A stretch of 64,000 nucleotides of DNA from a virus. The position numbers were made by a program, and so were the translations under genes. This document shows, piece after piece, positions 39,456-47,824 of the stretch; position 1 is the stretch's first letter; every line of letters starts with the position of its first letter. Under the pieces are notes generated by a model. The model had not been told where the DNA came from. It saw only the letters and a list, made by a program, of their open reading frames with translations, and made no database searches. The DNA lies in IMG/VR virus record IMGVR_UViG_3300042923_001106, positions 119,209 to 183,208 of that record. One strand, written 5' to 3'.

Positions 39456-40397
39456 ATAATTAAGAGAAATAATGCTAGTTTCGCAAACGAAGTTTATCAT
39501 CAATATGACTGGTGTTATCAAAAGTTTATTATAGAAGGTTTAAATCATCAAGAAATGGCTCAAGAAGCAGGAACGACTGCGAGAACAATTAAGAAATGGG
39601 TGGTCGAAAAACACAGACTTAAAGGAAATATTAGAAGGAAAGTCAAAAGACTCAATCAATTACAAGAGGATTTAATCATCGGGTCAATTCTTGGTGACGG
39701 ACATATCACCAACGAAAAATTCAAACCTATATTCATAGTATCTCATGCGGCAGACGAGAAAGATTATTTGTACTGGAAACACGATATATTGAAAGATTTT
39801 TGCAACAAGGGTCCAAGATTGATTGAGGCACAGATAAAGCCATTTGGTGATAAAGAGTATTTGTCTCAAGATGCCTATAGGATTAACACCAGAGTACAGG
39901 ATGATTTAATAAAATATCGTGATATGTCAATAAAAGAAATAGTAAAAAAATTAAATGAATTTTCATTCTCTATTTGGTTATTAGACGACGGACATAGGAG
40001 TAGTGGATGTTGGGACTTATGTGTTGCTCCATACAGTGCCGATGAGGTAAATGAAATCTTAAATGTAATACATGAAAGATTTAAACTAGAATGTAAAATA
40101 AAATCAGACAATAGGTATATATTGTTTACAGCAAAGTCGAGCAGGGATTTGGATCAAATAATTCTAAAAAATATTCCTAATGAACTAGATGTAATAAGGA
40201 AAAAGATAACAGAGAAAGATATTGATACTGAAGCAAATTACTTTTGGGTTACTTATAATAATGAAGAGATTGGATTGAATAGGTTCTGTCGTGAAAACAA
40301 GATTGTATATTCAGCAGCTAGAAAACTTTATTTTGAAGGTGTGACTGATGGAATCGCTCTGATTGAAAAATGCTGTGCGAAAACTAAATATAAATAA
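39456..40397 (+). CDS. Free-standing LAGLIDADG homing endonuclease with N-terminal HTH; probable ATA/ATT start
   Basis: LIIGSILGDG and SIWLLDDG motifs. The frame is open from 39441; AGGAG 39444-39448 precedes ATA 39456 and ATT 39459, and the first ATG is at 39555. Confidence 0.75.
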   Translation: MIKRNNASFANEVYHQYDWCYQKFIIEGLNHQEMAQEAGTTARTIKKWVVEKHRLKGNIRRKVKRLNQLQEDLIIGSILGDGHITNEKFKPIFIVSHAADEKDYLYWKHDILKDFCNKGPRLIEAQIKPFGDKEYLSQDAYRINTRVQDDLIKYRDMSIKEIVKKLNEFSFSIWLLDDGHRSSGCWDLCVAPYSADEVNEILNVIHERFKLECKIKSDNRYILFTAKSSRDLDQIILKNIPNELDVIRKKITEKDIDTEANYFWVTYNNEEIGLNRFCRENKIVYSAARKLYFEGVTDGIALIEKCCAKTKYK

Positions 40398-44474: not shown

Positions 44475-44561
44475 AATATTGATGTTTTACAGGACAAACA
44501 AATTTTCACAAAACTCAACATATTCATTTATAAGCGACTCCTCAAAGGAGGGTATGCTTTG

Positions 44562-44726
44562 ATGAATACAAATGAGGCTTCACAACAAGCGGAAGAACAA
44601 ATTATCGAAACATTACCTTCAGGAGTAACGATGGTTATTAATGGATCACCAAGTATTGAAGGCTGTAGAGAGTTTCTGAAAACTCTAATAAAAGCAAATT
44701 ACAAAAACAAAGAAGTTAGCACATAG
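44562..44726 (+). CDS. 54-aa protein; candidate recombination directionality factor (SprB-like role)
   Basis: AGGAGGG-N9-ATG; MNTNEASQ...VTMVINGSPSIEGCREFLKTLIK; directly upstream of the integrase. The function is inferred from size and position. Confidence 0.5.
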   Translation: MNTNEASQQAEEQIIETLPSGVTMVINGSPSIEGCREFLKTLIKANYKNKEVST

Positions 44727-44764
44727 GCATATGTGCTTTTTCTTGTTCCTGTTGATATTCTACA

Positions 44765-44794
44765 TTTACTCATAAATATTGAGTGGTGTATAAT
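44765..44794 (+). promoter_or_regulatory. Sigma-A promoter of the serine recombinase, with an overlapping inverted repeat
   Basis: TTTACT-N18-TATAAT; ACTCA-N7-TGAGT in the spacer. Confidence 0.55.
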
Positions 44795-44840
44795 GGTAAT
44801 TAATATGTTTCATAAAAAACAACAAGGAGGCACTGAAGTT

Positions 44841-46346
44841 GTGTCGCAATACACTGTAAAATATGTAGCAATATATGTACGAAAATCTAGAGGCGATTTA
44901 GAGCACGATTTGGCAAAGCATCTAGCAGAACTAATCAAGCTGTGTGAAGAAAATAACTGGACTTATGCAGTTTACAGTGAAATAGGAACATCTGATTCCA
45001 TTGAATTACGCCCTGTTATGAGCGAATTGTTGTCAGATGTTGAACTTGGCATGTTCGATGCCGTCTGCGCGGTTCACATCGACCGTTTGAGTCGTGGTGA
45101 TGCAGTGGATAGAGCCAAGATACAGAAAATTTTGGGGAAGACAGAAACCTTATTAATAACTCCTCAAAGAGTATATGATTTCACAAACGAGACTGATTTG
45201 CTTATGGCTGAATTTGAAGGCTTAATGGCTCGGATGGAGTACAAACAAACATCAAGAAGGTTTAAGCAAGGAAAAGCACGAAATGCAAAATTGGGATTCT
45301 GGTCAAATGGAAAACCGCCGTATCCATATTATCGAGACAGTGAAAAAAAGAAAGCCGTTGTAAATCCAGATTATCGACCAGTATACAGAAGAATGGTCGA
45401 CTTGTGTATGCAGGGTTGGACATTTACAGATATTGCGTGGGAGCTAAACAAATTAGCCATTCTTTCACCCAAGGGTGGAATGTGGAGTCATGTAGTAGTT
45501 GGTAATTTGCTTCAGGATGAAGTTCATCTAGGACATATTGTGGTAGGAAAAACAACAAAAACGGCTACCGGAGATAAGATTCACAGAGAAAAGGAAAAAT
45601 GGATTGTATACAAAAATTGTCATGAAGCCGTAAAGACGCAAGAAGAGCACGATAAAATTATTTTTTTAACAAACAGAAATAAAAGATCGAGTAAGGCCAG
45701 TAGAGCAGGTAAGCAAGTATTTTCTGGATTACTTTATTGCGCCTGTTGTAGTAAAGCGATGCAAATTCAAAAGCAAAAGAACAGACCAAATGACTCAGTA
45801 CGATCTTGTAGAACGCATGATGCTTTTGGAGTCAGATGTATTAATTTAGGCGGAAGTGTTACAGCAATAAATGAAGTAATTTATAATGCACTAATAAAGA
45901 AGAAAGAATATTTAATTAAAGCAATCAATGAAGGAATATCAGATGATGATACTAATGAACTTCAACAGATTGCATCAACTAAGTTGAAAGAAATAAAACT
46001 CCATGAAAAAAGAATTGAGAAAATTTATCGTAATCAAGAAAGTATGCTGTACTCAGAAGAAGAAGATGAGAACGATGCAATATTCCGTGAAAGATTAAAA
46101 AAAGCAAAAGAAGAATTAAAGCTACTTGAGGACGAGTATACTTCTTTGTCCACCCAAATTGAACGAGCACTCGACACAAGGAACGAAGATTTACTTCTAA
46201 ATATTGAGGACGTTTTGAAACTACTCAACAAGCCATCAATCGAAGATAAAGAAAAAAATCGTGCATTGAAAAGTATCATTAACAGGATAGAGTGGAAAAG
46301 ATTAAGGATTGATGAACAGCCGACAATATATGTAAATTTTCTTTAG
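44841..46346 (+). CDS. Large serine recombinase/integrase (SprA-like)
   Basis: YVRKSR (catalytic Ser), DRLSRG, NGKPPYPY, zinc ribbon FSGLLYCACC and a coiled coil; GTG 44841 follows GGAGG. Confidence 0.92.
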   Translation: MSQYTVKYVAIYVRKSRGDLEHDLAKHLAELIKLCEENNWTYAVYSEIGTSDSIELRPVMSELLSDVELGMFDAVCAVHIDRLSRGDAVDRAKIQKILGKTETLLITPQRVYDFTNETDLLMAEFEGLMARMEYKQTSRRFKQGKARNAKLGFWSNGKPPYPYYRDSEKKKAVVNPDYRPVYRRMVDLCMQGWTFTDIAWELNKLAILSPKGGMWSHVVVGNLLQDEVHLGHIVVGKTTKTATGDKIHREKEKWIVYKNCHEAVKTQEEHDKIIFLTNRNKRSSKASRAGKQVFSGLLYCACCSKAMQIQKQKNRPNDSVRSCRTHDAFGVRCINLGGSVTAINEVIYNALIKKKEYLIKAINEGISDDDTNELQQIASTKLKEIKLHEKRIEKIYRNQESMLYSEEEDENDAIFRERLKKAKEELKLLEDEYTSLSTQIERALDTRNEDLLLNIEDVLKLLNKPSIEDKEKNRALKSIINRIEWKRLRIDEQPTIYVNFL

Positions 46347-46509
46347 GGGTATAGTGTGTATTAGACTAGCAATCATAAGCTAGGTGCTGATTTGTGAAAA
46401 TATGAAAAAAAGCCTTAATCCCGTCAACGAAATGATGTATATTACGAAGTCGACACGGATGGGCATTTCATAAAATACATCACAAATTAAGCTGCACTAT
46501 ACCCCTAAA
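46342..46509. ncRNA. 168-nt branched long hairpin (candidate structured RNA or recombination-linked DNA element)
   Basis: Perfect 15-bp terminal IR TTTAGGGGTATAGTG/CACTATACCCCTAAA, with nested stems CTAGC/GCTAG, TGATTTGTGA/TCACAAATTA, TATGAAA/TTTCATA, GCC/GGC, ATCC/GGAT and GTC/GAC. Confidence 0.55.
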
Positions 46510-46512
46510 TTG

Positions 46513-46529
46513 TTTATACTGAGTATAAA
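46513..46529. promoter_or_regulatory. 17-bp palindrome, candidate operator or protein-binding site
   Basis: TTTATACT-G-AGTATAAA, 3 nt from the long hairpin. Confidence 0.45.
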
Positions 46530-46568
46530 TTATAAAAATACGAACGGGGTGGGAACATTAGTAGCAGT

Positions 46569-47402
46569 ATGAAATTGGAAGAACAAAAAAGAATGGTCAG
46601 CAATATCGATGTGGGTTTCGAATTGCTATCGGACAAGCCTTTAAAATATAAAGAAAAATGTATTATTCTATGCTCCAAGGGGCATCAAATCGAAACGGCA
46701 TGGAGAGACATAAAGAAGAAACTGGAAAGCGCAGGTTTTTGTAATAATTGTTTTATGGTCAAAAAGATGATGGAACGAGCTATGGAAAAAGGTTATACCC
46801 TACTCAGCGATGAATGGAACGGTTACACAGCAGATTATAAATTTTTATGTCCAAATAATCACGAGCAAACATATGTTTGGAAATATTTTAATGATCATGA
46901 TGGTAACCATTGTATCGAATGTTACAATCAACGGGTTTTAGAAGGCAATCACACAGCCACATCAGAAGAATTCAAGCAGCATCAAAAGGAAAGGTTATTG
47001 AGTAGAATGAGTGAGCTAGGATATACTCTAGATCAGCAAAGTTATTCTTATGTAAACAATAAAGATAGAATTAATATGATTTGCTCAAGTAATCATAAAT
47101 ACGAAGTTGAATATGCTCATTTTATGCAAGGTAAGAAATGTAGAAAATGTGGCTATGATAACTGGCGACTATCCGAAGAGGAAGTTAAAACAGAACTTGA
47201 AAGTATGGGCTATACCTATCTTGGTGAATATCATAGAATAGACGAGCCATTGAAATATATTTGCACATGCGGACATGTTACCAGAAAGAGATTGACCGAC
47301 CTACGAAGAGGTCAAAAATGTATTCGGTGTGCAAAGAAATATACAGTTGAGAATAGACGGAAAGAGCGAATGATATTATTAGAGCAAGAGTTTAATAAGT
47401 AA
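46569..47402 (+). CDS. Four-repeat zinc-ribbon protein (homing-endonuclease-type DNA-binding repeats, no nuclease domain seen)
   Basis: Four repeats of about 55 aa: G(F/Y)xL...C-x1-3-(G/N)H...CxxC. Confidence 0.75.
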   Translation: MKLEEQKRMVSNIDVGFELLSDKPLKYKEKCIILCSKGHQIETAWRDIKKKLESAGFCNNCFMVKKMMERAMEKGYTLLSDEWNGYTADYKFLCPNNHEQTYVWKYFNDHDGNHCIECYNQRVLEGNHTATSEEFKQHQKERLLSRMSELGYTLDQQSYSYVNNKDRINMICSSNHKYEVEYAHFMQGKKCRKCGYDNWRLSEEEVKTELESMGYTYLGEYHRIDEPLKYICTCGHVTRKRLTDLRRGQKCIRCAKKYTVENRRKERMILLEQEFNK

Positions 47403-47426
47403 TATTGCATCAAAAGGAGAAGAGGT

Positions 47427-47759
47427 ATGACTCATCAATTCCGTGGATTAATTAAATGTTTGAATTGTGGTAAGAACTACAAGACAAAAAGTGAACGTAA
47501 AAAGTCTGTATATGTGTGTTCAGGATTTGCAAATTATGGAAAAGATTTTTGTTCATATTTCCCTCTTCAGGAAGAAGACCTAACGTACACTGTATCGAAA
47601 CACTTATCTCTACAAAATAAAAGTGCTGTATCAAGCTTGTCCGAATACGTACTTGTAATCGAAGTTAAAGGGATTGGATATAGGATACTCTACAAAGACG
47701 GAACTGAATCGCTGATTAATTGGAACGGTAGTGAATACGGTGTAAAGGTAAAGTATTGA
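47427..47759 (+). CDS. Stand-alone recombinase zinc-beta-ribbon domain protein
   Basis: FRGLIKCLNCG...YVCSGFANYGKDFC...LQEEDL. Confidence 0.75.
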   Translation: MTHQFRGLIKCLNCGKNYKTKSERKKSVYVCSGFANYGKDFCSYFPLQEEDLTYTVSKHLSLQNKSAVSSLSEYVLVIEVKGIGYRILYKDGTESLINWNGSEYGVKVKY

Positions 47760-47824
47760 TTCCAAGATTTCCATATGTCATCTTAAATCTTCCTATGCTA
47801 TGTTTAAATTTAGGAGATGACATA

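Follow-up and report, generated by a model that had tools for sequence, protein, structure and literature searches.

A paired stem spanning attP and a candidate -1 frameshift signal at the end of a large serine integrase gene

Results

The DNA analysed here (the window, 64,000 nt) is part of a viral genome, G000, present as a single contig of 183,208 nt. Its ends overlap by 2,552 nt, which shows the genome to be circular and its attachment site to be an intact attP. Around that site lie genes for DnaE, RecU, a large serine recombinase (the integrase), a ligase and an endolysin in an SPbeta-like layout, with the integrase co-oriented behind the replication genes. A free-standing LAGLIDADG endonuclease gene (39555-40397) sits directly upstream of the DnaE gene. 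The longest reading frame of the integrase opens at 44733, and its likely start, a GTG at 44841 behind GGAGG, was inferred from this ribosome-binding site and the N-termini of relatives. Just ahead of the gene, at 44718-44794, a terminator-like hairpin is followed by a sigma-70-type promoter (10/12), and these two sites suggest that the integrase is its own transcription unit. The features are listed in Table 1.

Table 1. Features at the 3' end of the integrase gene and beyond it, in window coordinates.
Feature	Position	Strand	Basis and remarks
Large serine recombinase (integrase)	44841..46346	+	Pfam Resolvase, Recombinase, Zn_ribbon_recom; ends V-N-F-L-stop
Candidate slippery heptamer A_AAT_TTT	46334..46340	+	X_XXY_YYZ in frame (codons V-N-F); conservation at synonymous positions
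Putative -1-frame tail S-L-G-V and its stop (46352-46354)	46340..46354	+	Translation; stop conservation
Outer stem P1, left arm	46342..46358	+	15 Watson-Crick pairs and 2 G·U; remains at attR upon integration
Side hairpin P2, core	46366..46383	+	Closer relatives: position kept, sequence variable; elsewhere shrunk to a bulge
Three-base helix start, then lineage-specific extra segment	46386..46432	+	Helix start pairs with 46490-46492
Predicted attP, canonical 50 bp	46433..46482	.	Crossover dinucleotide GG 46457-46458; symmetry scan
Outer stem P1, right arm	46493..46509	+	Transfers to attL upon integration
AT-rich 17-bp palindrome	46513..46529	.	Probably outside the element; chance level, not in G003
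Cys-rich repeat protein	46569..47402	+	PHROG 559/681; resembles non-catalytic part of phage HNH endonucleases
Stand-alone recombinase zinc-ribbon protein, 110 aa	47427..47759	+	PF13408; on attL side of attP

The Cys-rich repeat protein gives weak CapR-like and HNH-phage profile hits, with no nuclease domain seen in it, and several relatives have a gene like it behind attP (L001, 4695-5393; L113; L117; L194). In prophages inserted in gerW this gene would fall under the host promoter at attL. The zinc-ribbon protein, to which an ORF right after attP in L179 is similar, is a candidate directionality factor.

The integrase TAG lies within a perfect 15-bp inverted repeat (46342-46356 and 46495-46509). 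At spacers of up to 500 nt, this repeat ties with two others for the longest perfect arm in the 183-kb genome, and the spacers of those two are 12-14 nt. The 168-nt segment folds strongly (z = -4.6 on the plus strand and -5.9 on the minus strand; none of 200 shuffles folds as well), and its long interrupted stem is present in both the MFE and the centroid fold. Repeat search and folding place every feature described in the initial annotation at the coordinates given there, and its further reading of these features fared unevenly. The long inner stem, on which a rod-shaped 6S-like RNA would depend, is missing from G003, the closest relative at 79% identity, where the same segment folds locally. 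Nor does Rfam bear out such a decoy: over the window there is no gathering-level match to 6S or any other family, with two sub-threshold E-value hits over 371 nt, and a conserved rod with a central bubble was not found in a family whose members range from 104 to 168 nt. A MITE remnant is not borne out either, since the genome holds no dispersed copies with terminal inverted repeats; the element occurs once per genome, fixed at the integrase stop. The 17-bp palindrome does exist, but 11 such palindromes in the genome against 6-14 in five shuffles is what chance would give, and it was not seen after the right arm in G003; a promoter role for it was rejected, as relatives show no consistent spacing. 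Within the element, the side-hairpin segment folds better on the plus strand in five of the six elements that have the side hairpin, G000 being the exception. Pairing between the extra segment and the right half of attP is possible in G000 only, and the segment was rejected as a third integrase half-site, neither its spacing nor its sequence being kept in G003. A DNA search for the element among cultured phages found nothing similar.

A symmetry scan with a neutral 24+2+24 layout identifies the centre of the element. In G000 the best placement has 17 of 24 symmetric positions, the next best has 11, and the scan finds a GG centre in all seven close members; in G001-G003 this centre coincides with the end of the sequence common to attL and attR. 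The same scan recovers, at 21/24, the published SPbeta centre in phage SPbetaL4 (available text of PMC5499854). Judged from this symmetry and from the junctions, the central 50 bp are almost certainly the attP of a large serine integrase, and the suggestion of an extended att region is borne out. Given this placement, the 8-bp pairing (46433-46440 with 46475-46482) that had been taken for a competitor of the main stem, and which extends to a 16-nt inverted repeat (88%), corresponds to the outer arms of attP.

Among DNA reads, the intact site is present in the probable source run, and in two other runs the contigs of a relative begin at 46454, a weak hint. Soil runs X1-X3 (44500-47800) contain a second phage, roughly 90% identical, that diverges over 46412-46453 and keeps the right half of attP. 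My searches found neither an integrated copy of this exact phage nor its host target.

Integrated relatives show what recombination does to the element. In two Paenibacillus genomes (G001, from P. barcinonensis, and G002) the integrase, 52% identical to that of G000, is followed by the left arm, the side hairpin and about 60 nt, after which gerW/ytfJ resumes with its 3' half. The 5' half of that gene, with the right arm beside it, is found about 161 kb away. In G003 a membrane-protein gene is split likewise, with the arms 173 kb apart; a profile search gave no family hit for this gene, which I take to be YcgA-like. The arms are separated by 115 kb in G574, 119 kb in G557 and 33 kb in G533, and in G794 they lie on separate contigs. 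For these last four, the 5' half of the host gene served to locate attL, and the right arm lay there, as predicted, in 4/4. In every one of the seven integrated relatives with both ends located, attR holds the left arm and attL the right. In six of these (G001-G003, G574, G533 and G794), attL and attR split at the central dinucleotide and rejoining restores the host gene, the core of G557 having been placed separately from the automatic rejoining; the junctions of G794, once joined, agree with the free element L113 in 129 of 135 nt. An invertible switch between the 15-bp arms was rejected, since the orientation is the same in every relative and each prophage end receives one of the arms. The conformational switch proposed in the initial annotation therefore survives in altered form: the element is switch-like, but is flipped by DNA recombination and not by the alternative 8-bp pairing.

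Several motif scans were run to widen the set. Across 401 Bacilli genomes the scan stayed at control level overall (20 matches in 18 genomes). Five G-rich matches picked from it by hand, with 14 others outside, served as a prospective test and are all LSR ends in attR form; four of them are G574, G557, G533 and G794 above, and the fifth (G603) is not part of the both-ends count. Of 52 matches in IMG/VR DNA, two lie behind an LSR and both were already in the set. The Paenibacillus genus scan matched in 4 of 93, two of them new and neither with heptamer or P1 by eye, and the family scan in 2 of 401, none new.

Five prophages break gerW/ytfJ at the same codon region (L003/L009, L004/L008, L261/L272, L263/L273, L264/L274). 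The same integrase group also targets a gene for a 500-aa membrane protein, a dicarboxylate-symporter gene and another gene, presumably DUF255/YyaL-like (loci L022/L194; L262/L268; L114, L116, L124, L131, L134, L265). Across these targets the outer stem is kept and the att core changes.

The outer stem, P1, begins at the integrase stop in the free elements L001, L113, L117, L179 and L096/L099/L101/L102 and does so too in Staphylococcus and Mammaliicoccus phages in culture; SPbeta-type loci and more distant ones lack it. Its pairs were counted by register in scripts because the variable interiors could not be aligned (MAFFT). In 17 elements (10 natural and 7 rejoined in script, with the near-identical L099/L102 left out), all 170 cells of columns stop+4 to stop+13 are paired, a figure to be read in the knowledge that the helix search admitted G·U pairs and that these columns were picked after it. 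Five of the ten columns carry 3-6 pair types, and there are 17 G·U pairs and no A·C (about seven separate events), a bias that the att core does not share (15 vs 18, ten elements). The stem energy is -12 to -27 kcal/mol. Such compensatory change, with G·U and without A·C, means that the outer stem is probably RNA on the integrase mRNA, and to this extent the structured RNA suspected at the outset, and the covariation expected of it across homologous downstream regions, are borne out. At attR, host sequence still provides the left arm with a partial partner (0.51-0.58 vs 0.87-0.92). I consider it very likely that P1 is an mRNA stem on the integrase transcript, formed only across an intact attP; no terminator-like site was seen between the integrase stop and the right arm.

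Two features that the initial annotation had overlooked lie at the same place, namely the slippery heptamer and a stop in the -1 frame. Of 106 distinct LSR loci, 21 have the heptamer at the same position and one has a different heptamer. A_AAT_TTT is found in 25 of 29 genes ending x-N-F-x, and the four N-F-ending genes that lack it lack P1 and the four-codon stop as well; the background in G000 is 14/123 for x-N-F and 3/23 for V/I-N-F. Among 21 representatives below 70% identity, drawn from 40 loci and including one selected by motif (L262), 19 have the heptamer. The codon columns for its N and F rank second and third of 79 conserved columns (0.95 and 0.90), against a mean codon fixation of 0.69 across 31 other two-codon columns, and one unrelated Tyr column is likewise codon-fixed (18/18). 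Genes with P1 end R-T-A, A-A-T, T-T-T, C-T-N in all 14 listed, and CTN accounts for 42% of the other Leu codons.

The -1 frame is constrained as well. A stop after exactly four codons is present in 20 of 22 heptamer loci vs 7 of 84 others, and in all 17 paired elements this stop, which is inside the covarying helix, is TAA or TAG. Of the 22 heptamer loci, 11 contain a P1 of at least ten pairs and most of the remainder are attR forms; among the 84 other loci, one has such a P1. The first G-C pair comes 5-7 nt past the heptamer in 12/13, and weak A-U or G·U pairing starts less than 5 nt from it in 11/17. Locus L258 has heptamer and stop without P1 in the locus, and in L032 (2995-3060) the heptamer is directly followed by a plain attP hairpin, with a -1 tail of nine codons; this is possibly the ancestral state, in which attP itself would be the stimulator. 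The lineages are related, and on a fast tree it takes three changes to set the rows with P1 apart from those that have the heptamer but no observed P1. The tail itself is weakly conserved, with nothing kept beyond S-(L/I/V), and its hydrophobic residue is forced because the -1 frame overlaps the normal stop codon.

These observations coincide with several traits of frameshift signals: a heptamer of an efficient class, a 3' structure roughly 5-8 nt downstream, and conservation at synonymous sites and in the -1 frame. The available part of PMC4066793 ranks heptamers of the form H_HH.U_UU.Y with the most efficient ones in E. coli, places the beginning of stimulators 5-8 nt downstream, and does not name A_AAT_TTT in its listing of common IS heptamers. 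A +1 frameshift or stop read-through was rejected by eye, as no frame is conserved that would serve it. Transcriptional slippage needs a longer run than this one and was rejected on that ground; it would also be unable to sense a downstream stem.

A -1 shift would turn the N-F-L tail of the integrase into N-F-S-L-G-V. In an AlphaFold model (mean pLDDT 86) the last strand spans residues 512-517, and the fold matches the SPbeta integrase (Z 25). Model residue 518 corresponds to residue 531 of the SPbeta integrase in 4/4 structure entries, the match being the range end of flexible whole-chain alignments with an rmsd of 12-26. On this alignment, the new Leu would therefore occupy the position of F532, a residue flanked by L37 and F40 of the RDF and important for directionality (PMC11722253).

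Discussion

What do a stem that recombination takes apart, a slippery heptamer and a fixed stop in the -1 frame have to do with one another? I think that they probably constitute a programmed -1 frameshift at the end of the integrase gene, gated by the recombination state. Those parts of the argument that were computed are the attP identity, the split arms, the covariation, the conservation of heptamer and stop, and the residue correspondence. RNA polymerase outruns ribosomes in Bacillota, and the distant arm could fold in time. In the free or excised phage the integrase transcript would run through attP and P1 would form in it, with its G-C core 5 nt behind the heptamer, so that a fraction of ribosomes might shift to the -1 frame, bypass the normal stop and terminate four codons on. 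Integration would move the right arm far away, the stimulator would be lost and mainly the short form would be made. The long form would gain a hydrophobic residue at the equivalent of F532, on the directionality surface, where it may affect recombination, and the integrase gene would thereby serve as a readout of its own recombination state.

If the shift is real, there is about an even chance that the long form is the integration-competent one, the reading that best matches a gain of function starting near zero and reaching tens of percent. It is rather less likely that the long form blocks re-integration, whether sensitised to the RDF or dominant negative in the tetramer, and a change in stability or a degron is less likely still. 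In its widest form, which I put forward tentatively and with some doubt, the proposal is that a family of SPbeta-like integrases, from spore-formers to staphylococci, sets the direction of recombination by recoding: the -1 shift would supply the F532 equivalent only in the unintegrated state, and one gene would encode two forms, one for integration and one for excision or idling, the state of the gene's target site deciding between them.

Of the other explanations, retroregulation in the manner of lambda sib fares best, although I consider it unlikely. P1 would be a nuclease substrate, and the integrase mRNA would be destroyed or truncated only when the phage is excised, which would prevent re-integration. 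RNase III might act in the stem or RNase Y in the preceding AU-rich stretch, and either would be compatible with frameshifting. This explanation calls for the same dependence on state and the same covariation, is in keeping with the arms being split in every integrated relative with both ends located and with the orientation of the integrase behind the replication genes, and can draw on the preference of RNase Y for AU-rich unstructured RNA. It stays a live rival because RNase III of B. subtilis cuts long-range duplexes of 10-36 bp (10.1101/2023.03.12.532304, in the part available). Left unexplained are the in-frame heptamer and the restriction of the third position in the -1 frame to TAA or TAG, and the consensus of RNase Y, weak and GA-centred, is unlike a fixed heptamer motif.

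Improbable in my view is that P1 is a protective or pausing 3' structure, which would stabilise the integrase mRNA or slow termination in the free phage with no recoding at all. A strong stem directly at the stop, found in attP only, would suit this function, but the function requires neither a heptamer nor a second stop, and no terminator follows P1. Quite improbable, too, is an element acting as DNA, with the outer arms as accessory sites for the integrase, an RDF or the zinc-finger proteins, or as a cruciform gating attP. Both strands do fold well, zinc-finger genes come after attP, and the distance from the right arm to the crossover is nearly fixed (46-51 nt in 9/10). Against this, the left distance varies over 56-115 nt with no helical phasing, the G·U pairs are confined to the sense strand, the arm sequence covaries and is not conserved as such, and the minimal attP of SPbeta is 52 bp (PMC5499854, as above). 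A discrete ncRNA excised from the attP transcript, whether a 6S-like decoy or a partner of the integrase, is very improbable, for all its paired 5' and 3' ends and strong folding, given the absence of an Rfam match, the variable length, the loss of the rod in G003 and an interior that is an att site varying with the target.

The gated frameshift bears on how serine integrases are regulated after infection and excision; the regulation of SPbeta integration had not been investigated according to the accessible portion of a 2021 review (PMC8270828). If the proposal is true, mobile elements would have a new means of detecting their integration, namely a frameshift stimulator that site-specific recombination makes and unmakes, and conditional recoding would gain a new class. 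For genome engineering, it would mean that cloning no more than the annotated ORF of an integrase in this group yields the short form only. I found no report of a frameshift or an RNA structure at a serine-integrase attP in the open-access literature, main texts only, and the words 'integrase' and 'recombinase' do not occur in PMC3711429 or in the part available of PMC5009743. Sites of attachment, sib-like sensing of state and -1 frameshifting are each known; their combination is new only if the shift is real, a claim for which I have moderate confidence. Should the shift not be real, the element would still be an undescribed RNA stem spanning attP, akin to retroregulation.

The nearest known system is SPbeta with SprA and SprB, which shares the protein family, the fold and a 50-bp symmetric attP right behind the integrase. 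The SPbeta prophage interrupts a sporulation gene, as the relatives described here split the sporulation gene gerW/ytfJ; SPbeta and gin are treated as sporulation-gene elements in the accessible parts of PMC8270828, PMC4191935 and PMC5595907, and the name gerW was not found in the available text of those SPbeta/gin papers that were searched for it. The two systems differ in that the SprA-type site of SPbetaL4 is a plain attP, without outer stem or heptamer, and in that SprA has F532 in frame, whereas here the equivalent position exists in the -1 frame only. With 6S RNA the likeness is confined to a rod-like MFE drawing in G000 alone; an Rfam match, a conserved central bubble and a conserved length are all missing, and the interior is an att site.

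The sib element of lambda lies on the other side of attP, wholly beyond it, and is cut by RNase III. Like the element described here it is 3' of the integrase gene, and it lowers or alters Int output (PMC5300877, PMC2951348, PMC6379469, in the parts available). Lambda, however, has a tyrosine integrase and acts through mRNA decay, whereas here one arm lies on each side of the crossover, the stop codon falls within the structure, and what is proposed to change is the isoform of the protein. In mycobacteriophage BPs, too, the recombination state changes the C-terminus of a protein: attP lies inside the repressor ORF and integration removes a tag (PMC3694055, available text). Here attP lies beyond the ORF, and the protein altered, by recoding, would be the integrase itself. 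Finally, the -1 frameshift signals of IS3/IS911, dnaX and phage structural genes have the same design of a heptamer with a 3' structure, placed 5-8 nt downstream, and branched stimulators are known (PMC4066793 and PMC5009743, as far as available). In those systems the stimulator is fixed in the gene; here the shift would merely replace the last residue by four, and its stimulator would be assembled and dismantled by DNA recombination.
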